A stretch of DNA of 64,000 nt from Methanobacteriota archaeon (GTDB taxonomy: Archaea; Thermoplasmatota; E2; DHVEG-1): positions 16,747 through 80,746 of the forward strand of contig CAIRCU010000032.1 in NCBI GenBank assembly GCA_903877165.1, read 5' to 3'. Below are positions 3,074 to 58,965 of this stretch, piece by piece. The notes beneath the pieces were generated by a model that saw only the letters and a program-made list of their open reading frames with translations, searched no databases and was not told where the DNA came from. Numbering within the stretch: the stretch's first letter is position 1; every line of letters begins with the position of its first letter. A program made the translations under genes and the position numbers.

Positions 3074-3122
3074 ATCGAACTACACTGTAAAATAAAAAAT
3101 AGTAATCTTCAGAATTGCGACG

Positions 3123-3210
3123 GGAGAAAAAAACCGATAGAACCTACCTTTCTTGCCCTATTAACTGCAATCCCTTCGAGAATCGAGAAAGAGCTCGTTG
3201 AGAGATGAAC
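3123..3210. repeat. imperfect direct repeat copy 1 (~75% identical to 5226..5309); contains a degenerate tRNA-Pro 3'-end-like segment (gagctcgttgagagatgaac)
   Basis: Manual alignment. gagaaaa..cgatagaacc.ac.ttt..ccctattaac..aatccct...gagaa...cgttgaga.tgaac is shared with the region immediately 3' of and overlapping the tRNA-Pro gene. Confidence 0.5.
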
Positions 3211-3295
3211 AATGCTAAAAATGAGGGAGTCTGGTTGAACGGGATTGGTGCCACGAACATCCTGTCTTTGTCAAGGATGAAGACGGAGGACTTTC

Positions 3296-4174: not shown

Positions 4175-4185
4175 GGTTTCACCGT

Positions 4186-5103: not shown

Positions 5104-5225
5104 AAAAATAACGTGAAATGAGTTATATAGCTTATTTAAATTGGAGAAAAAAGGAACCCTAGCCTTATATGATGTTCTTTAGGCATGCTCCTTAAAACCA
5201 GGCCATCTAGCAGGACAGTGAGGTC

Positions 5226-5309
5226 AGGAGAAAATCGATAGAACCCACTTTTTACCCTATTAACCGAAATCCCTCCTATAACGGAGAATGGGCCCGTTGA
5301 GATTTGAAC
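5226..5309. repeat. imperfect direct repeat copy 2 (overlaps the 3' end and downstream flank of tRNA-Pro)
   Basis: See 3123..3210. Shared segment aggagaaaatcgatagaacccactttttaccctattaaccgaaatccct...gagaatgggcccgttgagatttgaac. Confidence 0.5.
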
Positions 5310-5361
5310 TCAAGTCACTTGCACCCCAAGCAAGAAGGATACCAAGCTACCCCACGGGCCC
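5289..5361 (-). tRNA. tRNA-Pro (anticodon GGG)
   Basis: Reverse complement GGGCCCGTGGGGTAGCTTGGTATCCTTCTTGCTTGGGGTGCAAGTGACTTGAGTTCAAATCTCAACGGGCCCA. 7-bp acceptor stem, anticodon stem CTTGC/GCAAG with loop TTGGGGT (U33, G37), T-loop TTCAAAT, no encoded CCA. Confidence 0.85.
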
Positions 5362-5435
5362 AGGGGATACCGGGTGCTAAGGGTGCATGCTGACAAGCCT
5401 TAATATAGTTTATTCGATTCAACTCCCCTGGTACC

Positions 5436-8403: not shown

Positions 8404-8462
8404 GAAAACCCGGCTCCTTTGAAACCCCCTGATGTATATTAACGTTGTGAAGAACGTACCTC

Positions 8463-9779
8463 TTAGTCTTCAGGGAGGATGGTCTCGCGCGGGATCCTGG
8501 TAACGTCGAGAGATTGTCTTGTGTATGAGACTCGTGGGCGTGGCGCGAGCTGCAGGGTGGTTGAGGATTTTTTCTTCCGAGGATGGGATTCGATGTCGAT
8601 GGTGATCCCAAGGCCGTGTGGCGGTTTGAGGATGGTGAGATGGACTGCGGTGTGGCCATGGCTTGGGGAGTGGCGCAGCGGTACGTTCTTGCAGAGTCCT
8701 TGAAGCGCGGTAGTCTGGCCGTCGTCGGTGAAGGTGCCGTCGACGCGGCCGGGTAGTTCACAGAGGATGTAAGCGCGGAAAAATTTCTGTTGGGTCGGGA
8801 TGTCGATGTATTCGTAGCCGTCAGTGGTGGAGGTGAACCGTAACTTGATGGTCTTGTTGCCGAGTTTGCCGGTGACTTCCATGTCGCTGGGGTAGTAGAT
8901 GTCGTAGTCTTTGAGGTAGATGACTTTGGTGTATCTGAAGTGGACGTCGCAGAATTCCCAATATTTTTTCCCGTCTGGGGTGACGTAAAGGGTGCCGAAG
9001 GCTGGTCCGTCGTTGACCCATAGGAGGCTGTTGCCGAAGAAGAAGCTCCAGCCGTTGTCGCAGACGCCCCAGAGCCAGTCGTAGCCCAGCATATTGTTCT
9101 CGGTGGCGAAGCCGATACGGCTGGGGAGACGGTGGTGGTGCTGTGAGAACCACCAGTAGAAGAGGCGCAGGTACGTGTCCAGGGTCGTGCGCATGCCGCT
9201 CAGTCGTTGCAGGGGTTTTTCGTACGACCAGTTCCCGTACGCATGTTCGAGGTAGCCTTTGCCGTCCAGCGTGAAGGTCTTACCCTGCAGGGTCATGGTG
9301 CCGGTGAGGGCGCAGTGGGGGATGAACCCGTAGCGGTAGTGGTTGAGGCCGATGGGGAGGATGCCGTTGGTGGTCTCCTGGGTGATCCAGTGCGGGAGGG
9401 CCCGGGCGTCCATGTCGATGTCGGTGCTAAAGCCTTTGGCGTCGTCCTGGTGGTGGAGGTGGTACTTGGGGTACAGCCCCTGGAACGTGGTCTGCTTGTA
9501 TCGTAGGTCGATCCTGTTTTTCGTGGTGGTCAGTTCGCTAAGGTTGTCGTTGAGGTCCTTGTGTAGGACGCATTTTCCTGTGGTGAGGTCGATGAGGACG
9601 TATTGGAAGAAGCAGGAGGGCGGATCTTGGGTGACTGCGAACGATGTCATGAGGTTCCAGGTGTGCTGGTCATCGCGTGTGGTGAAGAAGAGTTCGGACG
9701 TCCACCATTCCTTCTTGATGGGGTGGTGGTCGCCTTCGTCTTGCGGCGTCCAGGGGTTCGCTGGTTCCATGGGTTCCAT
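8463..9779 (-). CDS. hypothetical protein, possibly CrtC/AttH-like (lipocalin-like hydratase fold)
   Basis: N-terminal KKEWWTSELFFTT segment resembles the EWWY motif region of the CrtC/AttH family and the REWWYFTAVF of 15702..17051. W/Y-rich beta-type composition. Lies between UbiA gene clusters. Confidence 0.35.
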   Translation of the reverse strand: MEPMEPANPWTPQDEGDHHPIKKEWWTSELFFTTRDDQHTWNLMTSFAVTQDPPSCFFQYVLIDLTTGKCVLHKDLNDNLSELTTTKNRIDLRYKQTTFQGLYPKYHLHHQDDAKGFSTDIDMDARALPHWITQETTNGILPIGLNHYRYGFIPHCALTGTMTLQGKTFTLDGKGYLEHAYGNWSYEKPLQRLSGMRTTLDTYLRLFYWWFSQHHHRLPSRIGFATENNMLGYDWLWGVCDNGWSFFFGNSLLWVNDGPAFGTLYVTPDGKKYWEFCDVHFRYTKVIYLKDYDIYYPSDMEVTGKLGNKTIKLRFTSTTDGYEYIDIPTQQKFFRAYILCELPGRVDGTFTDDGQTTALQGLCKNVPLRHSPSHGHTAVHLTILKPPHGLGITIDIESHPRKKKSSTTLQLAPRPRVSYTRQSLDVTRIPRETILPED

Positions 9780-11662: not shown

Positions 11663-13810
11663 TCATGGGATGCTTCTTGGTCCTTTCCCTTTGTACACTG
11701 CCTCTGTGAAGTTTATCTGGCGCATGCGCGGCTGTGATGCGACCTCTTCGAAGTAATGGGCGGATAGACCCGCTATCCTCCCGTAGATGAAGAATGCTTT
11801 TGCCATCGAAGGGTCGAGTTTCATATCTGCCACTATGGCTCCGATCACCCCGTCGACGTTGATTGGCAGGCTCATTCCTCTCACCTGTTCAAAGATCGTG
11901 CTCACTATCTTGGAGAGCTGTACATGCTCACCAGCGACACCGGTCTGAGCGGAAAGCGCCCACAGCACGTCTCGGCGCGGGTCTTTTGTATGCAATCGAT
12001 GGCCTAAGCCTTCGATGCGTTTTCCTTCTTCGACGTACGTCCTCATGATCTCTCTGGTGGCTTGCGCGATGTCGATGTTCTCCTTCTCTGATTTCCTGAT
12101 ACATTCGTTGAAAAGCGCTGCTGCCTTCGCACCAGCGCCACCATGCACATCGGTTATCGCGCCGACGCCTTGAGCCACAGCGACCTCAAAAGGCGCTCTC
12201 GTGGATGCCGCGATGAGCGTCGCTTGGGCAGACGGGGGAGTCACCCCGTGGTCCACGCAGGCGACAATCATTGCTTCAATCATCCGAGACTGCTGTTCAT
12301 TCACTGTTGGATTCCCGGTGACTGCACGGTAGATGACATGTGAAAATGGTTCATTTCCACTACTCCTTTCTAGGGCTTTTTCCGTGTCCAATATTCCGCT
12401 GAGGTACCGAGCAACCCGGCCGAGGCAGAAAATCGTTTTTTTCACAGCTCCCTCTGTTCCAGCCTCAGGGAACTTCGCGAGTTCCTCGTCAAGGACGAAA
12501 TATTTCACCAGTGTTTTTGAGATATCCTCATTTTTCATGCGTGTGACTTTCGGGATGGGTCTTTGTGCTGCGTCGACAGCGATCTTTCGCATTTCCTCGA
12601 GGATTTTTTTATCGGGGAACTCTCCTTTTACGAGGAGGTAGGCCGTCTCAAGAAAACCCTTTTTCTCCACGATGTCCTGTAAGGAGTACCCAGAGATCAT
12701 CAGGTTATTTGGCATGACCTTGGTAACGAGGGTCCCCCACCCAGGTTTCTTAAAGGGTGCATCCCAGATCGTCTTCATTTTTTTGTAGTAGTTCTCCACA
12801 TCGAAGTAGGTTTTTTTCACAAGTCTCTTCTGAACCTCGGTGATGAGATCGTACTGGCTGTTCACCACGGGGACACCCGCGTTTTGCAAAGCGGTCTTCT
12901 TTGACTGGAACGTCCCGTAGACCTGCCCGGGGGAGACGATGGCGCCTGCATGGCCCATAGTTTTTCCCTCAGGGGCGTGCGCCCCGGAGATTAACGCGAC
13001 GAGTGGCTTTGGGTATTTCTTCGGGTTTTTCTTGATGTCATCTGCGAGGAGCTCTTCTTGGCATCCGCCGATTTCACCGGCGACGACGACGAGGTCAGTG
13101 TTCTTATAAGCCATGGCGAGTGGGACGAGGTCGCGGAATGTCGAGCCTATAGCACCGTCTCCGCCGACGCCGATCACAGCGTTTTGTGCGATGCCGACGC
13201 TTGCTAGTGCATCTGAGAGATGATACAGGATGGCGCCGCTTCGAGAGATGATGGTGACCCCTTTTGGCCCAAAAGCCTCAGGGGAGACTTCCTCGGGATA
13301 GAACACATCAGGGAGCATCCCTGCTTTGATTCCCTCTGGAGGGAAGATGACTCCGGGGGTGTTCCCGCCGATGAGTACGGTTTTGTGTTTCCGTGCTGCG
13401 ACAAGGATATCGCGGACGTCTTTCAACGGGATCCCTTCGCTGATGAGGATGACGACAGGGATGTCTGCTTCGATGACGTCGATGGTCGCATCCTTCGCGG
13501 TGGAATAATGCCGCCAGATGCTCGCGACTGCGATGTTGGGATGTTCTTTGAGGCATTCGCTGATGGTGTCGTAGACCGGTATCGTCTCAAGGAGCCGTGT
13601 TCCTCCGCGACCTGGGGCGATACCTGCCGTGATGGTTGTTCCGTACTGCTGCATGAGCTCCGCGTGTCGTGTCCCTTGTCCTCCAAGGCCGACGACCACG
13701 GTTTCGATGATCCCGGTTTGTTTGATTTTTTTCGCAAGATCCGGTCGTTTGTTCTCGATGATGTAGTAGAGCATTCCTTGATCCGGGGGCACGAGCTTCA
13801 TGGCTTCCAC
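11663..13810 (-). CDS. aclA: ATP-citrate lyase large subunit (CoA-binding/ligase domains plus citrate-synthase-like citryl-CoA lyase domain)
   Basis: N-terminal [12 protein letters not shown] CoA-binding region. Succinyl-CoA-synthetase-alpha-like segment. C-terminal citrate-synthase-fold segment with DVHGGAG. Start overlaps the aclB stop. Confidence 0.7.
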
Positions 13811-15701: not shown

Positions 15702-17051
15702 GTGTACAGGAAGATATTAATAAAGAGAAAGCGGAATAAAAACCTAAGTCAACTGGTGAGAACCTTCATGCCTCGTAGATTGCGGACGATTGACGTGTGT
15801 ATCGTCGTTGGTTTATTGGTCGTTTCGACCGGTTTCCTCTACAAGGCAGAGTATCTTGCTCCTCTTTTCCCCACGTCTTCTCCACCAGTGACACCAGTTG
15901 ATACGAACACAACGTCTCCTGTGGTTGTGCCACCGACCTCCCTAGTCCCGTCGGTTCGTCGGGATGTTTCCGGGGATGATGAAGGTATGCATTTCGATAG
16001 CCTGCGCGTCTCGCGGGAATGGTGGTATTTCACCGCAGTGTTCAACGGTTCGAGTAACAATCTTGGTGAGTGGGCTGCTGCGATTGCGTTCGCCCATCTT
16101 GCGCCCGGGGATCTCCTGGGGACCGCGAAGCCCGACCTCCTGGTCGTCAGTCTTCTTGATTCGTCTGGTGCGCAGTACGGCGGCATGGTCAACAAACGGC
16201 ATTACCTAGGGATTCTGAAGAGCGGTACGCTCGTGGCGAGCACTCCTGGTGTGAAACTCAGCTATGATTCGTCTTGGGTGGAGGGCACGGCACCCTCGTG
16301 GCATGTGCACGCGGAGGATGCGGAGATCGACACGGCGCACACTGTGGTCATCGATCTGGATTATCATGCACAGGCGCTTCCGTTGTGGACGCTTGGGACG
16401 AAGGCGTTCGAACTTTCGAACAGCACACTAGCAAGTTATGTGTTCCTTGACTGTGAGATCTCCGGGACGGTGTCGATCGACGGCGTCGTTCATCAGGTCT
16501 CGGGTGTGGGCACGTATGAGCATACGTGGTCGCCGCGCGCCGTGACCCGAGCGGAGATCAACGGCTGGGACTGGTTCAGCATCAAGCTTGATAACGGCTG
16601 GATGGTCTATGCCTCGAACTATCTGCCGACGCCGCAGGCGCTGACTGAGAAAATCTCGGCGCTTCCTTCGTTTGGTACAATCGTCATCACCACGGATCAT
16701 GGGGAGACGTGCACGGAGCTGAAGAACCTGAATGTCAAGGTCACGACGCAGGATGAGAAGGTGTTCCCCTTGGTGAAGATGCCGTCTGCGTTTGATCTGG
16801 ATGCGTCGCCGAGCCTCAATCCGACGTACCTGGTGAGTCAGTCGCTGCTTCTCGGTACGGATTTGTCGTTGACGGCGAACGGCTCTGTTGTGAATTCGGT
16901 GGATAAGATTTGGAACTTCCCGACGTACGTGGGTATGAAGCTTGGGTACGTGGACATTAGCGGGGAGTTGTCGTGGTCTGATGCGACCGGCGAGCATGCT
17001 GTCCCCTTCAGCGGGATCGGCGTCTCGTGGAGCATGCGGGCGCTACTGTAA
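15702..17051 (+). CDS. membrane-anchored extracellular protein, CrtC/AttH-like domain with Thr/Pro-rich linker
   Basis: N-terminal TM helix. PVTPVDTNTTSPVVVPPTS linker. REWWYFTAVF motif and beta-rich body. Weak resemblance to 8463..9779. Confidence 0.35.
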   Translation: MYRKILIKRKRNKNLSQLVRTFMPRRLRTIDVCIVVGLLVVSTGFLYKAEYLAPLFPTSSPPVTPVDTNTTSPVVVPPTSLVPSVRRDVSGDDEGMHFDSLRVSREWWYFTAVFNGSSNNLGEWAAAIAFAHLAPGDLLGTAKPDLLVVSLLDSSGAQYGGMVNKRHYLGILKSGTLVASTPGVKLSYDSSWVEGTAPSWHVHAEDAEIDTAHTVVIDLDYHAQALPLWTLGTKAFELSNSTLASYVFLDCEISGTVSIDGVVHQVSGVGTYEHTWSPRAVTRAEINGWDWFSIKLDNGWMVYASNYLPTPQALTEKISALPSFGTIVITTDHGETCTELKNLNVKVTTQDEKVFPLVKMPSAFDLDASPSLNPTYLVSQSLLLGTDLSLTANGSVVNSVDKIWNFPTYVGMKLGYVDISGELSWSDATGEHAVPFSGIGVSWSMRALL

Positions 17052-48199: not shown

Positions 48200-48299
48200 G
48201 CCCCACCCCAACCACATCCCCCAGATAAAGATTAGCCCTAGATCATCGATACGTATATGAGTACACACCCATTTCTACACCAGAGAGGGGACCACCACC

Positions 48300-48749
48300 A
48301 TGGGAAAAAACAAATTATCAAAGACCGTCAGCCCACTCGAACTCGTGACCTCGGAGATCGTCGGCCCATCCAGCTCGCACACCGCAGGCGTCATGCGCAT
48401 CGGCAGGACCATCGCGCAGCACATCCACCCGGTCGGCACCGTCAAGATCCTTTTGTACAATTCGCTGGCGGACACCGGGGACGCGCACATGACCAAAAGC
48501 GCGCTCGTCGCAGGCCTCCTCGGCTGGGACGACAGCGACCCCCGCATCCCCTTCTCCTTCCGCTACGCAGAAGACGCAGGCCTCCAAATAAAATGGAGCC
48601 ACAAACGCGACGAGACCGTCCATCCCAACACCCTCCTCGCCACCCTCCAGGACGCCCACGGCACCCTGCACGTCTACAAAGGAGTCTCCCTGGGCGGCGG
48701 ACGATTCAAAGTCACCCAGCTCCACAACCACCCCACGGAGGCCCCATGA
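48300..48749 (+). CDS. sdaAB: L-serine dehydratase beta subunit, short form lacking the C-terminal ACT-like domain
   Basis: IVGPSSSHTAGVMRIG and HPNT...GVSLGGGRFKV motifs of SdaAB. 149 aa versus ~220. Its stop overlaps the sdaAA start (ATGA). Confidence 0.6.
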   Translation: MGKNKLSKTVSPLELVTSEIVGPSSSHTAGVMRIGRTIAQHIHPVGTVKILLYNSLADTGDAHMTKSALVAGLLGWDDSDPRIPFSFRYAEDAGLQIKWSHKRDETVHPNTLLATLQDAHGTLHVYKGVSLGGGRFKVTQLHNHPTEAP

Positions 48750-49711
48750 CCGACTACATCCTCCGCGACTTCATCACCCAGGCCAAACAACAGAAAAAAA
48801 CCATCGGAGACGTCGTCTTCGACTACGAAGAACACACCTTCCACCGCAAGAAACAAGACATCGTCAAGAGACTCCATGACTCCTTCATCATCTTCGAAAA
48901 AGCAGTCAAGACCGGCCTGGAAGGCAACTACGAGTTCACCAACCTCATGTTCAACCACGACGCCCGCAGACTCCAGACCACAAGCTACCGCATCCTTGGC
49001 GGATCCCTGCATACCGCCTGCGTCTACGCACTCGCCATCACCGAAAACAACCTCAATATGGGCCAGGTCATCGCCTGCCCCACCGCAGGCTCCTCGGGTA
49101 TCGTCCCCGCCTGCCTCCTCGCCGTCTCCCAGGAATACGGCAGCAGCGACATGGAGAAATACAAGGCCCTGCTCGCCGCGGCCGCCGTCGAACTCTCCAT
49201 CGTGAAGAATGCGTCGATCTCCGGTGCGGTCCACGGCTGCCAAGCTGAGTGCGGCTCCGCCGCCGCCATGGCCGCAGCCGGACTCGTACAACTGCTCAAC
49301 CCTCATCATGCGACCAACCCTGACATGGTCGAGGCCGCAGCCGCGCTCGCGTTGAAAAACTCGCTAGGACTGGTCTGCGACCCGGTCGCGGGCGTCGTCT
49401 CCGTCCCCTGTCGGAAACGCAACGCGACTTCGGTGGGTACCGCGTTCATCTCCGCGCAGCTCGCGCTCTCCGGCATCACCTCGTACATCCCGTTCGACGA
49501 GGTCGCCAGTGCCATGCATGAGATCGGCGACCACATGGACACCCGGCTCAAAGAGACCGCGCGCGGCGGCCTGGCGCGGACCAAGACCGGGCGCGAATGG
49601 GAAGCCGTCAAAGACCACCTGGTCCACGAGGCGATAGTGAAGAAGAAAAGCTACTGCGACATCCTCGTTGAGAAAGCAAAGAAGAGCCAGGGCGGCTCCA
49701 AGCGGCCCTGA
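48746..49711 (+). CDS. sdaAA: L-serine dehydratase alpha subunit (4Fe-4S)
   Basis: CPTAGSSGIVPACL, SISGAVHGCQAECGSAAAMAAAG and LGLVCDPVAGVVSVPCRKRNA motifs. Start at the internal ATG of track ORF 48257..49711. Confidence 0.75.
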   Translation: MTDYILRDFITQAKQQKKTIGDVVFDYEEHTFHRKKQDIVKRLHDSFIIFEKAVKTGLEGNYEFTNLMFNHDARRLQTTSYRILGGSLHTACVYALAITENNLNMGQVIACPTAGSSGIVPACLLAVSQEYGSSDMEKYKALLAAAAVELSIVKNASISGAVHGCQAECGSAAAMAAAGLVQLLNPHHATNPDMVEAAAALALKNSLGLVCDPVAGVVSVPCRKRNATSVGTAFISAQLALSGITSYIPFDEVASAMHEIGDHMDTRLKETARGGLARTKTGREWEAVKDHLVHEAIVKKKSYCDILVEKAKKSQGGSKRP

Positions 49712-49730: not shown

Positions 49731-50759
49731 TTACGGTTGGTAGTTAGTGGCCTTCAGCTCCATGGCCAGGTTGCTGACCATGCCAGCGGAGATGTTCGCG
49801 AACTGCCCCGTGGTCTTGATGATATGACCCGCTTCAGGAGCATAGTACATGTACCCAAGGCCGCCGAACAACGAGATGTTGTATGCCGTGAACGTCCCTG
49901 CGGGAACCGTCACGCTCTCCGTCCCGGTACAGTAGAAGAGTTCCGGGGTCGCGGTGATGTTGATGGAGTTCCCGTGCAGGTAGGTGTTCATGACATGGGC
50001 GATATCGACGGTGGGCAGGATGTCGTAGAGGACATCGGAGATGTGCTGTGTTTCTTCCACGGTCATCCCCGTCATGTTGGCGACCGGGCCAATCAGGTTC
50101 CAAGTACGGATGAAATGGTTCACGCGGTTGATGACCGAAAACCAGGGTGAGTCGATTGTCCCGCTCAACGTGACCTTGGATGCGGGAAGACCCCAGACGC
50201 TGCTCTCATTGAGGGGGAACGTCAGGAGCGTGTAGGGCGTGTCAAACGCGATGTCGCTGTTCATGGTCATGGAGAAGGGAATCCTTGCGGGGAGTCGTGG
50301 GAGATAGGGCTGTTCATGGATGTAGCTGACCAGTTTCCCCTTCAGAACCAGGTTCATCGCCTTGACGCCAATGTCGGCCTTGGCGATGGAGATGGTCCCT
50401 CCCAGCGTCGTCTTCTTCAGGGTTCCAGAGACGTTGACCGGCCCGTCGGCCGTCATCGTGTACAGCGCGAAATTCCCGGTGATCGCAGTCGAGCTTATCT
50501 GGAGCTGGTACGTGTCGTTCGTCTCCGCGATCACCGTCGTGGTGAAGTCCGCGATTGACAAGTAGACGGAGAGTGAGAAGTTCTCCTGCTCAACGTTCAC
50601 GGTGAGATTGTCGATGCGGTACGTCCAGTAATTATTAACGGACCAGACGGGGACGTCAGCGCTCGTCGTCTGGGGACGTAGCGGTGTTGCGGTTTGGGCG
50701 AGGCAAAGTGGTGTAGAAAGCAGCATACATAGTAAGAGTATCGAGATTTTTTTCTTCAT
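49731..50759 (-). CDS. secreted hypothetical protein (paralog of 51130..52617 N-terminal region)
   Basis: Signal peptide MKKKISILLLCMLLSTPLCLA. VPVWSVNNYWTYRIDNL and FPLNESSVWG segments align with LPTWYPGDTWTYSIDPL and FPLNVGDQWH of the neighbouring gene. Confidence 0.4.
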   Translation of the reverse strand: MKKKISILLLCMLLSTPLCLAQTATPLRPQTTSADVPVWSVNNYWTYRIDNLTVNVEQENFSLSVYLSIADFTTTVIAETNDTYQLQISSTAITGNFALYTMTADGPVNVSGTLKKTTLGGTISIAKADIGVKAMNLVLKGKLVSYIHEQPYLPRLPARIPFSMTMNSDIAFDTPYTLLTFPLNESSVWGLPASKVTLSGTIDSPWFSVINRVNHFIRTWNLIGPVANMTGMTVEETQHISDVLYDILPTVDIAHVMNTYLHGNSINITATPELFYCTGTESVTVPAGTFTAYNISLFGGLGYMYYAPEAGHIIKTTGQFANISAGMVSNLAMELKATNYQP

Positions 50760-51129
50760 AAGCCTTCCTCCTTTCTGTCAAGGATGAGAGAGGACATGTG
50801 CCTTTATAAAATTATCCATACGTCTAATAGAAGTGGAATCACTCTTCCGTTCCATTTTTATGTAAAATTATACCAGTATTGAGAGGTTTATTGTGATAGA
50901 CAAAGGGACTTAAGCGAAGAAGAACACGGCGCAGGCATTACGGTACGGTTCGTTTTCGGTGAGGACCGCGACGATACGTTCATCCTGCAAGGTACCTACG
51001 GCATCGATGAGCGGCAGCAGCGTGGCAACGAGTCGACTCTGAAAGAAAACCTTCCGCGCCCGCATTTTATCCAACTCCAAACATTTAAAAGGACTCGGGT
51101 CGATAGCTACGTACTTTGGGGCATCACCT

Positions 51130-52617
51130 ATGAAACACCTCGGCGTCATCATCCTGATACTCATCCTTGGATCCGGTTCTGCGTTCGCTGCCGTCGGCAC
51201 GCCACAACCCACTAGTCACTCTCAATCCGCCTCCCTGTCTGCGTCCGTGGACCTCCCCACCTGGTACCCAGGCGATACCTGGACGTACAGCATCGACCCC
51301 TTGTACTCCAGCGGCGAGAACGGCACGTTCTCAGGGACCGTTGAAAACTTCCAGCAGACCGTCGTCGGCGTCCACGACGACGTCTACGACCTGGTAGTCT
51401 CCGCAGACATCAGCGGAACCTTCACCAGCGGCTCGCTCTCCGGTGACCTCACCGGGACGATCACAGGCACATCCACGACACGGCGCTCGGACCTCGCCCA
51501 AGGAGCGAGCATCCTTGCCTCGTCCGGCACCATCACCCCTGACTTTCCCCCCATCCCCCTCCCGTACACCGCGGACGTCACGTACGCATCGACACCGCTG
51601 CTTGAGCTCTTCGACTTCCCCTTGAATGTCGGGGACCAGTGGCATATCCACTGCCAGAGCACGACCACCGGCTCCATCGACATCTCAGGCCTCCTGGATC
51701 AATCCCTGGACGGCAACCAGACCATCGACGAGGACGTCTCCTGCCCGCAACAGGCGACTATCACGGTGCCGGCCGGCAGCTTTACTTCTTTTGAAATCGC
51801 CCGCGATACAACCGACGGTTGGTACTCCTCAGAGGCCGGCAATCTCGTCAAATCGACCATCGACCAGTCCGATGCGAACGGCACGGTCCACGCGGTCCTC
51901 ACCCTGCAGTCCTTCAACCGTAGCATCCAGCCTCTTACGGTCTCAGAGAACCTATCGCCCTCTGTGCTATTCCCCGGTGAGTCCGTCATCGTCTCCGGTC
52001 GATGCCTCAACGCTGGTACCGGGACGCCCGTCATCAACGCAGCGGTCACGGTTACCATCCCCGCCACGGGTGATTCCTGGACCACGAGCACGAATAACAA
52101 CGGAGACTACACCTACACGTTCGATGCCCCGGTCGTCCAGGACGATACACCGTCAGGGCGGGAGACCGGCTCCAGCGGCGTCGTCGTCCTCTGCCACAGC
52201 GGTAGCTTGGATGGTTACTGCGTTCGAACGCTCACCACTCTAGGCAACACCCCACCGCTCACTCCCAGCATCAACGGGCCAGCGACGGGGAAAGCCGGCG
52301 AGAAGTACACCTGCGCCATCTCCAGCACCGATGCGGAGCACGACGATTTGATGTACCTTGTGGACTGGGGTGACAACACCACGCAATGGATCGGGCCAAG
52401 CGCGTCCGGTGCGAACATCACCGCGACCCACACCTACACGAACAAGGGGATGTACCTGATTCGCGCGATGGCAAAAGACAGCCATGGTGCGGAGAGCGCC
52501 TGGGGCAGCCTTCAGGTGAAGATGCCGCTTTCATTTTCCTATCAGCCGAGATTCCGCTTCTTCGAACGGTTCCCTCATGCCTTCCTGTTGCTGCGGCTCT
52601 TCCTTCAAGCAAAATAA
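51130..52617 (+). CDS. secreted hypothetical protein with C-terminal PKD-like domain (paralog of 49731..50759)
   Basis: Signal peptide. Shared N-terminal domain. PKD-like YLVDWGDNTTQW...THTYTNKGMY segment. Confidence 0.4.
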   Translation: MKHLGVIILILILGSGSAFAAVGTPQPTSHSQSASLSASVDLPTWYPGDTWTYSIDPLYSSGENGTFSGTVENFQQTVVGVHDDVYDLVVSADISGTFTSGSLSGDLTGTITGTSTTRRSDLAQGASILASSGTITPDFPPIPLPYTADVTYASTPLLELFDFPLNVGDQWHIHCQSTTTGSIDISGLLDQSLDGNQTIDEDVSCPQQATITVPAGSFTSFEIARDTTDGWYSSEAGNLVKSTIDQSDANGTVHAVLTLQSFNRSIQPLTVSENLSPSVLFPGESVIVSGRCLNAGTGTPVINAAVTVTIPATGDSWTTSTNNNGDYTYTFDAPVVQDDTPSGRETGSSGVVVLCHSGSLDGYCVRTLTTLGNTPPLTPSINGPATGKAGEKYTCAISSTDAEHDDLMYLVDWGDNTTQWIGPSASGANITATHTYTNKGMYLIRAMAKDSHGAESAWGSLQVKMPLSFSYQPRFRFFERFPHAFLLLRLFLQAK

Positions 52618-52734
52618 AACCGTTTCAGGAGTAGTATAACAACCATAGTTATTATCTCAATTTCTCTATTATGCGACATTTTTACCATTTAAAATCAGGC
52701 GATATATTAATATATACTAACCTCATTAATTCGT

Positions 52735-55092
52735 GTGGGGAAGAAGATGAGAGCCACAAGATTTGTTTGGAAAGCAGCCGTTCTTGGAAGCGTCTTTCTT
52801 TGTTTAAGCAGCTGTTTTGCACCGGTACTTGCCCAATCACCACAATCACCCAGCACGGATCATCCAGTATTGTCAGGAGGAAACTCTGAAAAAACCGCTC
52901 AGGTGACCTGCTATGTCATCAGTTCGCAAGGAGTGAAACAACAACAAACATCGACACTCTCTAGAACTGATGCCGAATGGCTAATGGCAAAGCTTAAGAC
53001 ACTGCGCGCTGCGACATCCGGAAGTCCTTCAAACCCGATCTCCCTGCAGAACGAGGTTCTTTCGTTTGCTGAAACGCATCACCTCCTCCCGCAAGGCGTC
53101 TCTGCAGCTTCTCTATCCGCACAATTAGCGACCACACCAGAATTTGCTCGAAAACACCTTATCTTCCCAGCGAGCTTTGGGAGCACCTCGGAATGGGTCT
53201 GCAACTTCGCGACCACGGGCGAAGGATCCGCTAAGCCTATCATCATTCTCCCAAGATTAATCCCCATTCTTCTCATCCCGATTCCACGTGCGTTCGTATC
53301 CTGGTCAACCCCGGATGGGATCACTTCGGTCGGTGGGCTCATTTCTCACACAGGGTTCATCGCCTACGGAGTGCAAAAAGGGATCGCCTTGGGGTTCTGG
53401 GGTATCGGGTTCAGCATCTTCCTACCTCCAGTTGATGCCTACGGGATTTTCGGGTACGCTCTGTTCGCAAAAGTGACCGCTCAGTATTATGAGTTCTACC
53501 CGCCGAATAACCCACCGGAGATTACACAGACTGACCCCGCTGATGGCCAGCAAATGGTGCCTATGACGACGACGAAACTGCAGTTTAGCATCTCTGATTA
53601 TGATGGGGATCTCATGAGTTTCAACGTCACCACCAGCCCGGACATCGGTTCTGGGAGTGGTGGGTTAAAGCCTGGTGGCGTCTATTCCATCCCGGTCCAA
53701 GGCCTCCAAGACCTCACGCGATACACCTGGCGAATAACCGTGACCGATGGGAAAGACACGGTGAGTAAGACTCAATCCTTCATCACTGAACCAGTAGCTC
53801 CCATTATTTCGAACGTCCTCCCTGAGGATAATGACAACGCAGTCCCTGTGGACCTCTCGCAGCTGCAATTCTACCTGAAAGACTATCAAGGGGATGCGAT
53901 GAGCTATACGGTGATGACGTCTCCTGACATTGGATCTGGCTCTGGGACTAACATCCATGATGGTACGGTGACCATCCCGGTGCATGGCCTCACCATGGCT
54001 TCAGCCTATCGATGGTATGTAAATGTCACCGACGGGACGCATTGGAATCGTAAGGTTTTCAGGTTCCAGACCTCTTATCCTGAACAGTTCAATCCGTTTG
54101 ACTACGGCTGGCACTACAGAAAGACGCTGACGATTAATCATGAGCTGGTCGATGAGAGCCTCAGTAACTTCCCTGTGCTCGTGAGCATCACTGACAATGA
54201 TTTAAAACAGAAGGCGCAGACGGACGGCAGTGATATTTTATTTATGAACGCAACAGGCGTCTCCCACAAATCATATTTCGAAATCGAGACATATCAGGGG
54301 TCGACAGGCACGCTGACCGCATGGGTCAACATACCAACTGTTTCACCAGATGCCGATGTCACGTTCTATATGTACTACGGCAATCCCGATGCCCTCACCA
54401 TTGAGGAGAAAGAAAAGACGTGGGATAATAATTACCTGGTTGTTCAACACATGCATCAGGATTCGGCAGCGAACTTCAAGGACTCCACGCATTATCACAA
54501 CGACATTATTTCTCAGACCGGGAGTCCCTCGTATCAGCAAATAGGGAAAATTGGGTATTGCGTTGGTTTTCACGGGTCAGACGCCCTTTCCTTCGCCTCG
54601 TCGATCTATAATATAGCCCCTGCGACCGTTGAGGTCTGGGGAAAGACAGAGACGACCTCGTCGGATCAGTACCTGTTCTGTGATGGTGGTGAAACCAGTC
54701 GCTCCTATGGGTTCTATTGGTATATCCAAGGCGGCCAATTTGGCACCACGATGATGAACCTGCCGAAATGGGTCGGTCAAGATGGCATCGCGACTGCCGT
54801 GCCTGGCCAATGGTATTTCTGCGCGAGCACCTGGGACGGCACGGACTCCGATGGTCATTTCGTGATTAACGACCAGGTCTTTACGAAAACTAGCGGCATC
54901 GACAATCGGAATGAGCCCGCCAATAATGCGAAGATCGGGCAATGTTCTGAAGGTCAGTACGGGTTCCATGGTCTCATCGATGAAGTCCGATTGTCCAAAG
55001 TCGCCCGAGACGTGGGATGGCTGACCACCGAGTATACCAACTCTATCAACCCCACGGCCTTTGTCGTGGTCGGAGCAGAAGAGGGGCCTTAA
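52735..55092 (+). CDS. large secreted protein with two tandem Ig/FN3-like repeats, a DUF2341-like domain and a C-terminal LamG/concanavalin-like domain
   Basis: Signal peptide. Repeats FSISDYDGDLMSFNVTTSPDIGSGSGG... and FYLKDYQGDAMSYTVMTSPDIGSGSGT.... GWHYRKTLTINHELV...FPVLVSITD...YMYYGNPDA (DUF2341 pattern). WYFCASTWDG...IDEVRLSKVARDVGWLTTEYTN (LamG-type). Confidence 0.55.
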   Translation: MGKKMRATRFVWKAAVLGSVFLCLSSCFAPVLAQSPQSPSTDHPVLSGGNSEKTAQVTCYVISSQGVKQQQTSTLSRTDAEWLMAKLKTLRAATSGSPSNPISLQNEVLSFAETHHLLPQGVSAASLSAQLATTPEFARKHLIFPASFGSTSEWVCNFATTGEGSAKPIIILPRLIPILLIPIPRAFVSWSTPDGITSVGGLISHTGFIAYGVQKGIALGFWGIGFSIFLPPVDAYGIFGYALFAKVTAQYYEFYPPNNPPEITQTDPADGQQMVPMTTTKLQFSISDYDGDLMSFNVTTSPDIGSGSGGLKPGGVYSIPVQGLQDLTRYTWRITVTDGKDTVSKTQSFITEPVAPIISNVLPEDNDNAVPVDLSQLQFYLKDYQGDAMSYTVMTSPDIGSGSGTNIHDGTVTIPVHGLTMASAYRWYVNVTDGTHWNRKVFRFQTSYPEQFNPFDYGWHYRKTLTINHELVDESLSNFPVLVSITDNDLKQKAQTDGSDILFMNATGVSHKSYFEIETYQGSTGTLTAWVNIPTVSPDADVTFYMYYGNPDALTIEEKEKTWDNNYLVVQHMHQDSAANFKDSTHYHNDIISQTGSPSYQQIGKIGYCVGFHGSDALSFASSIYNIAPATVEVWGKTETTSSDQYLFCDGGETSRSYGFYWYIQGGQFGTTMMNLPKWVGQDGIATAVPGQWYFCASTWDGTDSDGHFVINDQVFTKTSGIDNRNEPANNAKIGQCSEGQYGFHGLIDEVRLSKVARDVGWLTTEYTNSINPTAFVVVGAEEGP

Positions 55093-55115
55093 TCAGATTC
55101 CCCCCTCTCTTCCCT

Positions 55116-56075
55116 TTATTTTTTCTTTGAAAGGATGAAGCATTGGCTATCGCCGAGATTGGAGAGAAGCAGGCTTGCGCCGAGGACTTTTCCGACCTTG
55201 AAGTTGCCTAAAATTTTCTTTGCTTTAAGGTAGTAAAGTCGATAGATATTCGAGGCGTAATCCCCTGACGAATAATGCTCCACCAGGAAGAAGGGGCGAG
55301 TAATGTTTAGGATCCCTTCCTTTGAAAAATTGAAAATATGCCGTGGGACACTATGACAAAGCCATTTTTTCCCGAATAGATGAGCCGGGAGGCTTTGACT
55401 GTTCGGGATTGACAACAAAAAGATGCCATTTTCTGATAAGCGTGCCGCGACGTCTTGAACCATTTCCTTAGGATCGGGGACATGTTCTAAGACATGACTT
55501 AGGACGATGAGATCGTATTGTCGTTCAGCGGGCAGTTCATGCAATTGAAGTTTTCTCATTGAGATGCCCACGGATTCGCCAAGCTTCTCAATGTTGGGAA
55601 AGATATCGATACCTTCGAGGTTACTTTTAGGAATTTGAAAATATTTGTTTAGGTTTTTTAGTAACGCGCCTCCTCCACACCCGACGTCCAAAACATGCTG
55701 AAAACTTCTCTCATGATGAACACAGTAATTTTTCAGGTCAAGAAGCCGGTTATCTACATCTTTACTAAATGCTTGGAAAAGGAATTTATCAATGACATTC
55801 ATAGTTCGGTTCTTTAGAAAGAATCTGTCCAGGTTCGTGTATCGAATCGTCGGGTCTTGTGGCTGATAAGCACCATAGCTTGAGGCGTTCATCTGATAAA
55901 AACTTGGAATTTCATCATCATCTGGTAAAGGATTTAAAAAATACGACCTGCAATGTGAACAGAGGTACAAATGAAATTCTCTGTTTGACGTATGAAACTC
56001 CTCATCCTTTGTCGTATAGCGAAGAGCAATGTTATTGCCGGCGCACAAAGGGCAGGAAGCAAGTGTCTTGGACAT
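55116..56075 (-). CDS. class I SAM-dependent methyltransferase with N-terminal C4 zinc-ribbon
   Basis: CPLCAGN...CSHCRSYF zinc ribbon. LDVGCGGGALLKNL motif I. Coding GC ~40%, well below the window average. Confidence 0.6.
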   Translation of the reverse strand: MSKTLASCPLCAGNNIALRYTTKDEEFHTSNREFHLYLCSHCRSYFLNPLPDDDEIPSFYQMNASSYGAYQPQDPTIRYTNLDRFFLKNRTMNVIDKFLFQAFSKDVDNRLLDLKNYCVHHERSFQHVLDVGCGGGALLKNLNKYFQIPKSNLEGIDIFPNIEKLGESVGISMRKLQLHELPAERQYDLIVLSHVLEHVPDPKEMVQDVAARLSENGIFLLSIPNSQSLPAHLFGKKWLCHSVPRHIFNFSKEGILNITRPFFLVEHYSSGDYASNIYRLYYLKAKKILGNFKVGKVLGASLLLSNLGDSQCFILSKKK

Positions 56076-56176
56076 CGAAGAGCATATCTTCCAAGTTGTT
56101 TTAAACTCTTCGAGAATTCATTTTCCTCAGCCCCAAGTCAGCGAAAACACCGTCAGCTTCTTTCTGTAAAAGGGTA

Positions 56177-56250
56177 TGGGCCCGGCAGGATTTGAACCTG
56201 CGACCAACTGGTTATGAGCCAGTCGCTCCACCGGTCTAAGCTACGGGCCC
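56177..56250 (-). tRNA. tRNA with CAT anticodon (elongator Met or Ile2)
   Basis: Reverse complement GGGCCCGTAGCTTAGACCGGTGGAGCGACTGGCTCATAACCAGTTGGTCGCAGGTTCAAATCCTGCCGGGCCCA. Anticodon stem ACTGG/CCAGT with loop CTCATAA. T-stem GCAGG/CCTGC. G1:C72 excludes an archaeal initiator. Confidence 0.85.
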
Positions 56251-56314
56251 TCGAAGGAGAAGTCAGCCTAAATCATTCTTCTACTACTTAAGATTTTAAA
56301 GATCCTGGATGTCC

Positions 56315-56968
56315 TCACAGCCAGGTGACGACCCTGCCTGGGTCCGGACGCTTGACCGACGCAGGAGTCTCCGCCGCATACCCAAGCAGACACCCATCCA
56401 GGACAAATATTCCGTACGGCAGACCCAGCAACTCACAAAACTTCCGATCGTCGCTCATCCCCTGCGTCGCGGTCACTAGCTGAAACCCAAGCCCCAGCGC
56501 CGTCGCCTCTAACCACATGTTCTGCAGGCAGTGCGCAAGCGAACAATGCTCTACGTGCGGAATCGCCCGCTCCTCAGCCACCACCAGATAATACGGCGCT
56601 TTCGAAAGAATCGGTGCATCCTCCTTCTCCCCTATCTGCAGGACTTTCAGGTACGCTTGAGCCCGGCTCCTGGCATGGGCATCAAGCTGCATCTCCTGCT
56701 CAAGACGTTGCCTCGTCGCCTTCATACCTCGTCTGAGTAGCTCCGTTGCCTGGGCCATGACCGGGCTTTCGCGTGGCACCACGGCCACCCGGCGGAAATC
56801 CTCCCGAGAAACTCCCAAGCCTGAGTACGGCGCGAGCAGCCCAGCCCGCACCACTCGTTCAACTAGGTCCCTGGGTGGGGCCTGCGGGGTGAACCGCCGG
56901 ACTGTCCGACGAGACGCTATGACCTCTTCAAGGACCTTGTCACAATCAATCTTCTCTGACGTCACCAT
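56315..56968 (-). CDS. nitroreductase-family protein
   Basis: ASRRTVRRFTPQ FMN-nitroreductase N-terminal motif. ~215 aa. Confidence 0.7.
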   Translation of the reverse strand: MVTSEKIDCDKVLEEVIASRRTVRRFTPQAPPRDLVERVVRAGLLAPYSGLGVSREDFRRVAVVPRESPVMAQATELLRRGMKATRQRLEQEMQLDAHARSRAQAYLKVLQIGEKEDAPILSKAPYYLVVAEERAIPHVEHCSLAHCLQNMWLEATALGLGFQLVTATQGMSDDRKFCELLGLPYGIFVLDGCLLGYAAETPASVKRPDPGRVVTWL

Positions 56969-57093
56969 TCACATCACCATGAACGCCAAAACACCGCATG
57001 AATCTTTTAATAATTTGCGATACACAATCCGAAAGTAAAAAAAGGAGAAAGAGAGGGCAAGCGGGTAGGCTTCCGCTCGCCCCTTCCCATGAA

Positions 57094-58965
57094 CTATCCA
57101 TCCCGATGGAACAAATACGCGAGCAGGGGGAACCGTTCGCACAGTCGTTCCCAAAAGCTTGGGATGCCCTTGCTAAGCGGGGTTGTCATGGAGATGCTGA
57201 TCGTTCCAAAGTCGCTATGATCCTCCGCGTTGACTACCTTGACCGTGCCACTGTAGCTGCCACCGGTAATGCTGAGAGCGGTTGGCGCCACAACCGTGAC
57301 CGTGATGGTCTTAGTGCCGTCCGCAGGTTTGAGGTTGTCACCGCTCGAGGGTGAAAACGACCAGGTGCCCCACGTCGGCCATTCCAGCACCTTCCAGTCC
57401 AGCCGTGAGTTCGCATCGCCGATGTTTTTAACCGTGAAGCTGCCTGTCACCGTCGCTCCTTTCTTCACATTCGTCCATATGAGGCTGCCGGCAGCGTCCA
57501 AGTTCGGGTTCAAGGTCTTCAACGAACAGATGACGACCGCGGCTTCTACAACCGTGTAGTTCGCGCTCACCGGGTACCCTTCGATGTACCAGGTGCAGTT
57601 AATGCCTGGGTCTGGTGAGCCGACGACGACGCTGTACTCATCATGCGAGACGTTCTTCGCATCGTTGTGATCCGTCGCCGCTGGTGTATTGAGGTTGAAG
57701 TCCGGGTCGGAGAATGCGATCTTCAGATCCTGTTGGTTGACTCCGGCGCAAGTGACGAAATGGCCCTCTCCCTTTTCAATCGTCGGGTTGTAGTACTCGG
57801 TTTTAAACGTCCAGTCGAAGAAGGTCGGTCCGGGGATTCCGTTCATCCAGCCCTGTCCTGGCGGATAGGGGTCCGCAGAGGATTGCACATAGAACCATTC
57901 GTAGTGGTACTGGTCAGGGGCGGGGACTTCCAGGACGTCGAAGTAGTACGTGGATCCAGCGACGAGGGGGACCGCGGGGAAGGGGAACTGTATCCAGGTG
58001 GGCACAGCGAGGTTCCCGGGGTTCAGGACCGAGGAAGCTATGGGTGCGGCTGGCGATGGTGCGTTGTAGAGGTTGATCTGAACATCGCACGGCGGCCCGT
58101 TGCTGACGAGGCAGACTTCGATGGCATCCAGCCGGTTGACGGACGGCACGAAGCTTTGGTAGTCCCACCAGGTCGTCGGCTGCAGATTATCATTACTGCT
58201 CATGACAGCCGGCATCATCTGGTCGATGAGTAAACTCCCTTGGCTGGAGGTGTAGTCGCTGAGCAGGAGGATGACGTCTTGACTGCTGGTGATGTTGGTG
58301 CAGATGTTGGAGAACGTCGGGTTCTGATAGGTGTGCTCCACGAACATCGTTGAGAGGCCGGCCGTGGCGAACCAGTTGGTGAGGCCTGTCTGCATATCGC
58401 TGACGTACGTGGTGCCTTTGGATGTCGTCTGCATTGAGTTGGCGAGTTTTTCGATGAGTAAGGGTGCGTTCGCTCTCGCATGGTCGTCGCCCGCGCCGTA
58501 ATCCTTGACGAGGTCGAACTCGTTCTGCCCGTCGCCCGCGGTGCCGTTGGGGTCCTCGAACTTGCTGTCGTACCACCACAGGCAGTTGGCGATTGCCGTG
58601 GGGCCGCAGTAGCACCATTTCGCGACGTCGTCCCCGGCGACGACGCTATCCAGATGGGCGTTGGGGCCTGGGGCGATGCAGTTCTCGGCGACGTTGAGGA
58701 CGTCGTCCCCGGCGACCACGGAATCAATGATCCCGTTGGGTCCGGCGGTGATTTTCTTCCAGGTGTCCTGTTTCTGGTCGAAGTCCGGCATCCCGCCGGG
58801 GGTGTGCGGCGCGTAATTTGGATACGGTGATTTCCAGTACCAAGCCGAGGTCGTGGCCGCGGGTGTTGGGCGTGAACTCATGGCGAGCGAGACTCCTGCG
58901 AACAGGAGGGTGCCGACCACGAGGAGACTAAAAGCTGCCTTTTTCTTGAGTGGGTATGATACCAT
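57094..58965 (-). CDS. secreted protein with putative C39-like papain-fold cysteine peptidase core
   Basis: Signal peptide. WCYCGPTAIANCLWWY resembles the C39/C39-like active-site Cys motif (xCGPaclamil.YY). Duplicated DSVVAGDDV segments. No TM at the C-terminus. Confidence 0.35.
   Translation of the reverse strand: MVSYPLKKKAAFSLLVVGTLLFAGVSLAMSSRPTPAATTSAWYWKSPYPNYAPHTPGGMPDFDQKQDTWKKITAGPNGIIDSVVAGDDVLNVAENCIAPGPNAHLDSVVAGDDVAKWCYCGPTAIANCLWWYDSKFEDPNGTAGDGQNEFDLVKDYGAGDDHARANAPLLIEKLANSMQTTSKGTTYVSDMQTGLTNWFATAGLSTMFVEHTYQNPTFSNICTNITSSQDVILLLSDYTSSQGSLLIDQMMPAVMSSNDNLQPTTWWDYQSFVPSVNRLDAIEVCLVSNGPPCDVQINLYNAPSPAAPIASSVLNPGNLAVPTWIQFPFPAVPLVAGSTYYFDVLEVPAPDQYHYEWFYVQSSADPYPPGQGWMNGIPGPTFFDWTFKTEYYNPTIEKGEGHFVTCAGVNQQDLKIAFSDPDFNLNTPAATDHNDAKNVSHDEYSVVVGSPDPGINCTWYIEGYPVSANYTVVEAAVVICSLKTLNPNLDAAGSLIWTNVKKGATVTGSFTVKNIGDANSRLDWKVLEWPTWGTWSFSPSSGDNLKPADGTKTITVTVVAPTALSITGGSYSGTVKVVNAEDHSDFGTISISMTTPLSKGIPSFWERLCERFPLLAYLFHRDG

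Follow-up and report, generated by a model that had tools for sequence, protein, structure and literature searches.

A surface-gene neighbourhood beside tRNA-Met in an uncultured Thermoplasmatota archaeon, with a segment probably exchanged between lineages

The 64,000-nt stretch of contig CAIRCU010000032.1 analysed here (assembly GCA_903877165.1, referred to as the window) carries, between 49.7 and 59.0 kb, six protein-coding genes arranged around a tRNA-Met(CAT) gene. These are two divergently transcribed paralogs, designated parA and parB, the gene of a 785-aa protein with immunoglobulin-like (Ig), DUF2341 and LamG domains, a methyltransferase gene, a nitroreductase gene and the gene of a 623-aa secreted-protein candidate. 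The region is probably a native surface-gene neighbourhood in which one segment, running from the first Ig domain of the 785-aa protein to the tRNA, has recently been exchanged between lineages. Only ~2.7-3.5 kb next to the tRNA looks foreign and exchanged. An initial annotation had placed the six genes, a 370-nt spacer between the paralogs and the tRNA at positions that were confirmed (Table 1), and had considered the region as acquired. Foreign origin or exchange is retained here for 52.7-56.2 kb, but the 9.2 kb do not form one island.

The host is an uncultured Thermoplasmatota archaeon. The flanking genes are of archaeal type (primase large subunit PriL, PolB and thymidylate kinase); the host is taken as archaeal because archaeal PriL and PolB are present and all related loci come from Thermoplasmatota metagenome-assembled genomes. 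Thermoplasmatota are abundant uncultured archaea of sediments and soils whose cell surfaces are almost uncharacterised. The families found at the locus lack annotation but belong to known kinds; they allow hundreds of 'hypothetical' proteins to be annotated in a testable way and do not overturn current ideas.

Evidence for a probably exchanged segment next to tRNA-Met

Base composition sets a small part of the region apart. The GC content at third codon positions (GC3) is ~0.75 in typical genes, 0.58 in the DUF2341-LamG gene (overall GC 0.51) and 0.45 in the methyltransferase gene (GC 0.42). The L046 orthologues of these two genes, from the sister lineage, show the same GC3 deviation. A block at 53,506-56,176 has 47.6% GC and covers the Ig, DUF2341 and LamG domains, the methyltransferase gene and the spacer to the tRNA. 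The low GC reported earlier for 52.6-56.2 kb is therefore real but narrower than implied, as GC3 is native in parA (0.78), parB (0.77) and the 623-aa gene (0.77). Deviant composition combined with patchy distribution, the usual mark of a genomic island, was found for 52.7-56.2 kb only.

The same block stands out by its similarity to L046. In a nucleotide alignment of the two loci, identity is 89-95% at ~53.5-56.2 kb and 65-85% elsewhere. Within 53,506-56,176, 2418 of 2669 nt are identical (90.6%), against 52.3% in codons 1-257 of the DUF2341 gene and 70.7% on the nitroreductase side (chi-square p=6e-114). The 101-nt non-coding spacer between methyltransferase and tRNA is 86% identical. At the protein level, the methyltransferase is, of the genes compared, the one most similar to L046 (90.5% amino-acid identity), followed by PolB (87%), PriL (86%), the 623-aa protein (78%), the DUF2341-LamG protein (75%), parB (71%) and parA (66%). 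Identity at four-fold degenerate sites, i.e. third codon positions at which all four bases specify one amino acid, reaches 0.74 in the methyltransferase gene and 0.66 in the whole DUF2341 gene, and is ~0.50 in PolB, HAD, the 623-aa gene, the nitroreductase gene and parB. Compared with its positional orthologue P0138, the 785-aa protein has ~46% amino-acid identity over residues 1-257 and 90-97% from PPEITQTDPADGQQ onward. The block breaks off at codon 257/258 of the DUF2341 gene on one side and at the tRNA on the other.

Gene order in relatives separates resident from variable genes. The tRNA-Met gene lies directly upstream of PriL in 12 of the 12 relatives scanned; the pair is a conserved synteny anchor and the tRNA 3' flank is a synteny breakpoint. 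The nitroreductase and 623-aa genes stand between the tRNA and PriL in five lineages (the window, L046/L048, L049, L001 and the P0006 contig). The content of the tRNA 3' flank varies between the lineages examined, in agreement with the proposal that the tRNA forms a boundary. This flank holds the methyltransferase, DUF2341-LamG, parB, parA and serine dehydratase (SDH) genes in the window and L046, small ORFs including an integrase-like one in L049, Lrp, aminotransferase and AOR genes in L001, MIP and P-type ATPase genes on the P0006 contig, and an aminotransferase or an EF-Tu-domain gene in more distant relatives. The divergent parA-parB pair was found beside SDH genes in three lineages, including L046 and L051. 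The loci L051 and L001 lie directly next to each other on a single 785-kb contig, in the order aminotransferase...SDH-parA-parB-[16.7 kb]-tRNA-Met-nitroreductase-623-aa gene-PriL, and the aminotransferase is 91% identical to that of the window. The 16.7-kb slot contains CARDB, S8 peptidase, PKD, FG-GAP and metabolic genes; the same slot in the window is 3.5 kb long and contains the DUF2341-LamG and methyltransferase genes. This colinearity indicates that parA/parB and the nitroreductase/623-aa gene pair are resident and that the variable slot is 52.6-56.2 kb. A single island does not agree with native parA/parB beside SDH in three lineages, nor with native nitroreductase and 623-aa genes conserved in five. 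The initial annotation had named synteny and uniform composition in relatives as the situation that would speak against acquisition: this situation was found for parA/parB and for the nitroreductase/623-aa gene pair, which are native and colinear; only the DUF2341-LamG and methyltransferase genes deviate in composition.

Three histories would meet at the locus. The first would be that of parA and parB, a native divergent pair of paralogs fixed beside the SDH genes, parA being free and parB tailed. The second would be that of the nitroreductase and the putative secreted clan CA peptidase, native and clade-specific between the tRNA and PriL. In the third, the slot from parB to the tRNA 3' end would hold a low-GC pair, a member of the ~790-aa DUF2341-LamG family and a convergent methyltransferase. 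The exchange of the segment that stretches between the first Ig domain and the tRNA would be younger than the split of the lineages, because the block is so much more similar than its flanks (52% and 71%) and ends in the conserved core of the gene and in the tRNA. The most likely route would be homologous recombination anchored on this core and on the tRNA, a process suggested by the pattern of divergence.

Cassette replacement by homologous recombination between conserved flanks is known from surface-polysaccharide and antigen loci, such as in bacterial capsule and O-antigen switching. The block in the window resembles these in its sharp breakpoints, located in conserved sequence on both sides, and in its envelope-related cargo. 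It differs from bacterial antigen-locus switching in that one breakpoint lies inside a coding gene, with only the outer domains swapped, and in its archaeal host. Similarly to tRNA-linked islands and islets, the segment is compositionally deviant, abuts the 3' end of a tRNA gene and differs in content between related lineages; unlike tRNA-linked islands, it has neither integrase nor attachment (att) repeat and is only ~2.7-3.5 kb long. If the exchange is real, cassette exchange would let these wall-less archaea vary their surface in a manner comparable to capsule or O-antigen switching in bacteria, and the locus would show archaeal surface variation driven by recombination.

Several observations weigh against a recent exchange and the function proposed for its cargo. 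Recombination machinery, integrase and att repeat were not found in the searches: no ORF of 45.8-63.9 kb contains a recombinase domain, a 25-nt probe from the tRNA 3' end matched only the tRNA itself at up to 3 mismatches, no other meaningful direct or inverted repeat was detected in 47-60 kb, and a PHROG scan of the secreted proteins gave no integrase and no viral link. Four-fold-site identity is also raised in PriL (0.70) and SDHa (0.65), probably because of strong codon bias, the measure being imperfect. The block is present in one close comparator lineage only (L046/L048). The closest solved relatives of the methyltransferase are generic small-molecule methyltransferases, so that a glycan substrate is a guess, and the methyltransferase gene is not adjacent in L053 although the L053 LamG domain is 59% identical. 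Secretion, peptidase activity and glycan binding are predictions only, made from sequences and models.

These points have to be compared with those facing the alternatives. The adjacency of a low-GC tract to a tRNA and the variation of the tRNA 3' flank between relatives could also be explained by one classical island spanning 49.7-59.0 kb, site-specifically integrated into tRNA-Met and bringing adhesion and secretion functions; an integrase-like ORF (E=0.0045) that abuts the same tRNA in L049 suggests that the site may serve integrating elements. This explanation is largely refuted and we regard it as very improbable: neither integrase nor tRNA 3'-end repeat was found in the window, parA, parB and the 623-aa gene have a native GC3 and keep their order relative to housekeeping neighbours in related genomes, the tRNA has genes of the region on either side, and the boundary of the block is inside a gene and not at an att site. 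It is unlikely, though somewhat less so, that no exchange took place and that the block reflects gene-specific constraint, i.e. strong purifying selection, unusual codon usage or a locally low rate of mutation. As proteins, the methyltransferase and the Ig/DUF2341 domains are indeed well conserved, and the low GC3 shared by both lineages could be a property that has been maintained. Constraint does not readily explain why four-fold sites (0.74) and the 101-nt spacer (86%) are unusually similar despite an unbiased GC3, why the N-terminal third of the same gene is at 46% amino-acid identity when the genome average is ~80%, or why divergence switches within ~50 nt.

All sequences come from metagenome assemblies, and the mosaic could in principle be an assembly or binning chimera. 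The chance of this is very slight since L046-type junctions occur in independent samples (JGI 3300027896 and 3300003852) and in a partial copy from Logan SRR5272259, the genes of the window are on record on an 84-kb contig, and the breakpoint is in-frame inside an intact ORF. A last alternative considers the six genes as one functional system in which, for example, the tailed and lectin-like proteins would be matured or anchored by the peptidase and modified by the methyltransferase. The locus does group four secreted proteins, two of them with the same C-terminal tail, and the presence of a papain-fold peptidase loosely recalls sortase or archaeosortase logic. The genes nevertheless co-occur in one sister lineage only; elsewhere the DUF2341-LamG gene is found in glycan clusters, and parA/parB beside S8 and CARDB genes in L051. 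The peptidase is itself tailed, and most of its family are tailless and end in a different Ig domain. A single system is thus quite improbable, and exchange of a short segment within a native neighbourhood is the reading followed below.

The 785-aa DUF2341-LamG protein and the neighbouring methyltransferase

The domain architecture given earlier for the 785-aa protein, tandem Ig-like domains with DUF2341 and LamG, was supported by Pfam thresholds, by an AlphaFold model and by an internal repeat. The protein consists of a signal peptide of Sec type, a small alpha/beta domain, a core at residues 133-257, Ig domains at 262-351 and 357-446, DUF2341 at 461-565 and LamG at 566-785. DUF2341 (PF10102) scores 31.6 bits against a gathering threshold of 23.4 (residues 497-563) and Laminin_G_3 (PF13385) 41.7 bits against 27.6. 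The AlphaFold2 (AF2) model has a mean predicted local distance difference test score (pLDDT) of 75 and is confident for the Ig pair (~90), which also forms the internal sequence repeat, for the DUF2341 beta-sandwich (>90) and for LamG. Foldseek matches of the LamG domain include AbnA domain 4 (target-normalised TM-score 0.68), lectin domains of trans-sialidases and a pilus-tip lectin module.

The protein belongs to a family with a full length of ~790 aa, for which >300 matches were obtained at 40-50% identity over 93-100% of the length; the source-named matches are all labelled Thermoplasmatota or Euryarchaeota archaea. The core at residues 133-257 (...PIIILPRLIPILLIPIPR...GIALGFWGIGFSIFLPP...) is the best-conserved stretch of the family. 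It is hydrophobic, with dozens of invariant proline, glycine and aromatic residues, and was found in 128 clusters only among 1.84 billion representative proteins, always at positions ~130-260. A known domain or a plain transmembrane segment was considered for this core and rejected: Pfam gives no match, the proline content is too high for helices, and AF2 models the stretch with a pLDDT <40. Between the window protein and the family, identity is 66-78% in the core (only 52% with P0138), ~65% in the Ig domains and ~55% in DUF2341. In LamG it falls to 21-30% with most members, the exceptions being P0138 (95%), P0139 (61%) and P0140 (59%). Given this difference between LamG and the core and Ig domains, LamG is, by sequence comparison, the hypervariable, fast-changing end of a conserved ~790-aa family. 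The 785-aa protein of the window has no self-match in the protein search, where its best match is at 75%, and the version beginning at ATG is missing from the collection as well; the neighbours of its gene are on record from the 84-kb contig.

Genomic contexts link the family to glycan biosynthesis. In five of the eight independent contexts (L056, L057, L058, L060 and L061), the gene lies inside a cluster of sugar-nucleotide enzymes, Wzx-type flippases and glycosyltransferases. In two of the eight (L053 and L059) it follows a NosD/PKD beta-helix protein gene. The context of the window, with the methyltransferase, is found in three lineages (the window, L046/L048 and L055). Based on the glycan-cluster contexts and on the carbohydrate-binding-module folds matched by LamG, the 785-aa protein would be a glycan-binding surface protein that displays a lectin-like LamG domain. 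The lectin-like end of this family, tied to glycan clusters, would be both hypervariable and exchanged between lineages. In L056, L057, L058, L060 and L061 (gene at ~7001-9400 in each), two to three DUF2341-LamG paralogues often stand in tandem.

Large DUF2341 proteins are known from the type IV pilus (Epd) loci of Methanococcus (PMC4858521, PMC10133366), and the bacterial ExbB/MotA-like 'GIT' A subunits carry an N-terminal DUF2341 (PMC12505986). The 785-aa protein shares with them a DUF2341 and a Laminin_G_3 domain above the Pfam thresholds and a predicted extracellular location. Unlike the GIT A subunits, it has no MotA/ExbB channel domain and no ExbD neighbour. Unlike the Epd loci, it has no pilin, ATPase or TadC neighbours, and its signal is of Sec type and not of class III. 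It differs from both by the clade-specific core and the two Ig domains upstream of DUF2341, and by glycan-biosynthesis neighbours. No MotA/ExbB or ExbD domain was found in 36 ORFs of the window, in agreement with the absence stated previously, and no type IV pilus component was found among the ORFs scanned; the bacterial ExbB/MotA and Methanococcus pilus links are therefore not applicable. The bacterial comparison drawn in the initial annotation is correct as literature but beside the point for an archaeal host in which the recurrent neighbours of the gene are glycan-biosynthesis genes.

The methyltransferase is a cytoplasmic class I S-adenosylmethionine-dependent enzyme (Methyltransf_23, 77.3 bits against 27, E=1.5e-21). 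Its N-terminus contains a CxxC...CxxC pair, i.e. a zinc-ribbon-like motif of four cysteines, and its start is 101 nt from the tRNA, so that the earlier description as a low-GC zinc-ribbon methyltransferase near tRNA-Met is upheld. Among solved structures, the putative methyltransferase 3cc8 is the closest (E=3e-11). A metagenome scan with the methyltransferase returned two loci only. No relative was found in IMG/VR viral contigs, and PHROG matches were to generic methyltransferases only. A role as constant partner of the DUF2341-LamG family was rejected, most members having no such neighbour; in L053, its place is taken by the gene of an unrelated zinc-ribbon/DUF5640 protein.

Since LamG is fast-changing and family members normally reside in glycan-biosynthesis clusters, the methyltransferase may, as a guess, modify a glycan and travel with its LamG type. 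The Ig-DUF2341-LamG ectodomain and the methyltransferase may together be a cassette for 'glycan recognition plus glycan modification' that can be swapped.

A papain-fold protein and a C-terminal tail shared with parB

The 623-aa protein had been described as C39-like. Peptidase_C39_2 (PF13529) gives 11.4 bits against a threshold of 24 (E=0.5), and no Pfam family matches the protein at E<=0.01; the assignment does not hold as a Pfam family, and what remains of it is clan CA by fold. The protein begins with an N-terminal signal or anchor helix, followed by a peptidase core interrupted by a beta-sandwich insert of ~160 residues (~aa 240-400), an Ig/CARDB-like domain at 489-595 and a C-terminal tail. 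Cys120, in the motif CYCGPTA, is located at the N-terminus of helix 120-136, and His402 and Asp420 are on consecutive strands. In aligned family members, the Cys is conserved in 33 of 35, the His in 33 of 35 and the Asp in 35 of 35. The two members with Cys changed to Ser are the same two with His402 changed to Arg, a joint loss expected of a catalytic pair. These two homologues, P0050 and P0080, are probably inactive pseudo-peptidases, as judged from the substitutions. The features that define clan CA, i.e. a Cys at a helix N-terminus with a His and an Asp or Asn on following strands, all conserved, are thus found in the model, and the 623-aa protein is a papain-fold, cysteine-peptidase-like protein of clan CA by its modelled fold, with conserved Cys120, His402 and Asp420. 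Peptidase activity is predicted from this model.

More than 350 homologues were found, with 45-80% identity across the first ~480 residues, and the named ones belong to Thermoplasmatota or Euryarchaeota archaea. The fold prediction points to a widespread family of secreted papain-fold peptidases for which databases hold no model. A PDB sequence search with the family profile retrieved no peptidase at E<=1, the only match being that of the C-terminal Ig region to a PKD-like domain (4xed), and no description of the family was found in the searchable literature on extracellular cysteine peptidases. The protein was compared with C39-like enzymes (PDB 3erv and PCAT C39 domains), staphopain (C47), streptopain and interpain (C10), IdeS (C66) and PeiR (C71). 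Contrary to these known clan CA peptidases, it has no significant Pfam, NCBIfam or PDB sequence match, and it possesses the beta-sandwich insert, a C-terminal Ig-like domain and the tail. No ABC transporter is attached to the protein, and a double-glycine substrate is not evident. Just upstream of the predicted catalytic Cys, at 58624-58752 (-), the gene contains a tandem 75-nt (25-aa) repeat in which DSVVAGDDV is encoded twice.

The tail is shared with parB: these are the only two proteins encoded by ORFs of the window that end in ...ERFP.... Its consensus is roughly F-x-E-R-L-L-E-R-F-P-x-x-F-P-x-L-R-x-L-L-G. Of the 120 homologues listed for the 623-aa protein, 26 terminate in this tail and the rest in a Big_7 domain with ...VWKFF. 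In the loci compared, it is also carried by parB orthologues and by unrelated PKD proteins, in every case at the extreme C-terminus. Tailed proteins in other loci are encoded at L011 806-2149, L017 11467-12015, L018 11876-13231 and L051 8356-9837. The tail has a Kyte-Doolittle hydropathy (19-residue window) of 0.55-0.65, whereas a PGF-type tail from L051 reaches 2.13, and is thus too weakly hydrophobic to span a membrane. Its first helix is strongly amphipathic (helical hydrophobic moment 0.5-0.7), and in the AF2 model of the 623-aa protein the tail forms a helix at 604-611, a kink at the proline and a helix at 613-619.

In being a short conserved motif that ends otherwise unrelated secreted proteins, the tail resembles PGF-CTERM, VPXXXP-CTERM and Heimdall-CTERM. 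Similarly to archaeosortase and exosortase signals, it directly follows an Ig or PKD domain and is carried by many genes per lineage. Unlike these signals, it has neither a hydrophobic transmembrane stretch nor a basic cluster at its end, and it consists of two amphipathic helices that meet at an (R/H)FP motif. NCBIfam CTERM models did not match it even at E<=10, when the PGF-type control tail matched Heimdall-CTERM at 8e-8. Neither the tail nor the DUF2341-LamG family was found described in the searchable literature (DUF2341, archaeosortase in Thermoplasmata). The sequence suggests a role as anchor or docking signal; its action may be unlike that of the transmembrane PGF-CTERM, e.g. as an in-plane membrane anchor or a docking helix, and the tail may mark how Thermoplasmatota surface proteins are held at the surface. 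That the tail is an undescribed anchoring or sorting signal and, at the same time, that Ig-DUF2341-LamG and methyltransferase form a swappable glycan cassette is a combination proposed here only tentatively, and rather doubtful as a whole.

The parA/parB pair and other features of the region

The paralogy of parA and parB suggested earlier was confirmed, the N-terminal 250 residues of parB matching parA by BLASTP at E=1e-11 with 23% identity across the whole of parA. parA has a signal peptide and no C-terminal anchor; parB comprises a parA-like domain, a CarboxypepD_reg-like sandwich, a PKD domain and the C-terminal tail. The PKD domain, also part of the earlier description, passes the Pfam cut-off marginally (PKD_4, 29.1 bits against 27). 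No Pfam family matches parA at E<=0.01. Its family is narrow (17 homologues found); DUF3108_like matches only the TVPAGTF strand, in 8 of 16 members and below the cut-off (E=0.01-0.03), and the family profile has a marginal PDB match to the putative lipoprotein 4fvs (E=0.09). Our best guess is that parA and parB are a binding module in free (parA) and tethered (parB) form. Their spacer is poorly conserved compared with L046 and contains AT-rich TATA-like boxes ~40-55 nt upstream of both starts, TTTATAAAA at ~50803 and ATTTAAAAGG at ~51083, which may act as promoters. In L046, an additional 150-aa secreted CARDB-like ORF (16568-17020) is located between parB and the DUF2341 gene; the equivalent position in the window (52618-52734) is just a 117-nt AT-rich spacer.

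The signal-peptide check put forward in the initial annotation gave hydrophobic, signal-like N-terminal segments in all four secreted-protein candidates, and none in the methyltransferase or the nitroreductase; secretion of the former is predicted on this basis. The nitroreductase call was substantiated by Pfam, the protein being cytoplasmic and its gene of native composition. The tRNA-Met(CAT) has a G1-C72 end pair and is 100% identical to that of L046; a search for RNA families in the region found this tRNA alone.

Table 1. Positions of the genes and sequence features of the region, in window coordinates
Feature	Position	Strand	Length	Basis
parA	49731-50759	-	342 aa	ORF list
Divergent spacer parA/parB	50760-51129		exactly 370 nt	
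parB	51130-52617	+	495 aa	ORF list
parB C-terminal tail (...FRFFERFPHAFLLLRLFLQAK)	52537-52614	+		
DUF2341-LamG gene	52735-55092	+	785 aa	ORF list, Pfam
DUF2341-LamG family core module, aa 133-257	53131-53505	+		
Low-GC block, young divergence from sister lineage L046	53506-56176			
Methyltransferase gene	55116-56075	-	319 aa	Methyltransf_23
tRNA-Met(CAT)	56177-56250	-		ARAGORN; Rfam 70.4 bits
Nitroreductase gene	56315-56968	-		PF00881, E=2e-20
623-aa protein gene	57094-58965	-	623 aa	ORF list; fold model
623-aa protein C-terminal tail (...SFWERLCERFPLLAYLFHRDG)	57097-57168	-		
Predicted His402 (GHFVTCAGV) and Asp420 (AFSDP) codons	57706-57762	-		
Predicted nucleophile Cys120 codon, motif CYCGPTA	58606-58608	-		

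Other observations concern the surroundings of the locus and its relatives. In L049, a 256-aa ORF at 12960-13730 (-) has a weak Phage_integrase match (E=0.0045) and abuts the 3' end of the tRNA-Met (12716-12791); the following ORF matches a PHROG of unknown function and the contig ends ~1.3 kb beyond. tRNA-Met may be the integration site of an element. The serine dehydratase of the window (48257-49711, +) is encoded by one 484-aa ORF, split in relatives into beta (149 aa) and alpha (~320 aa) genes, and the start of this ORF overlaps the start of the divergent EF-Tu-domain gene. The PolB gene of L053 (1591-5796) contains an intein (Intein_splicing and LAGLIDADG matches), and a PolB match in two pieces suggests an intein in L002 and L024 as well; the window PolB matches L046 continuously, and the window ends inside the gene. 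A second low-GC tract beside a tRNA is present at 1256-5362 of the window, with a tRNA-Pro at 5288-5362. Its cargo is a 605-aa protein with a PQQ beta-propeller and Big_7 (GC3 0.43), a methyltransferase and a UbiA prenyltransferase (GC3 ~0.59).

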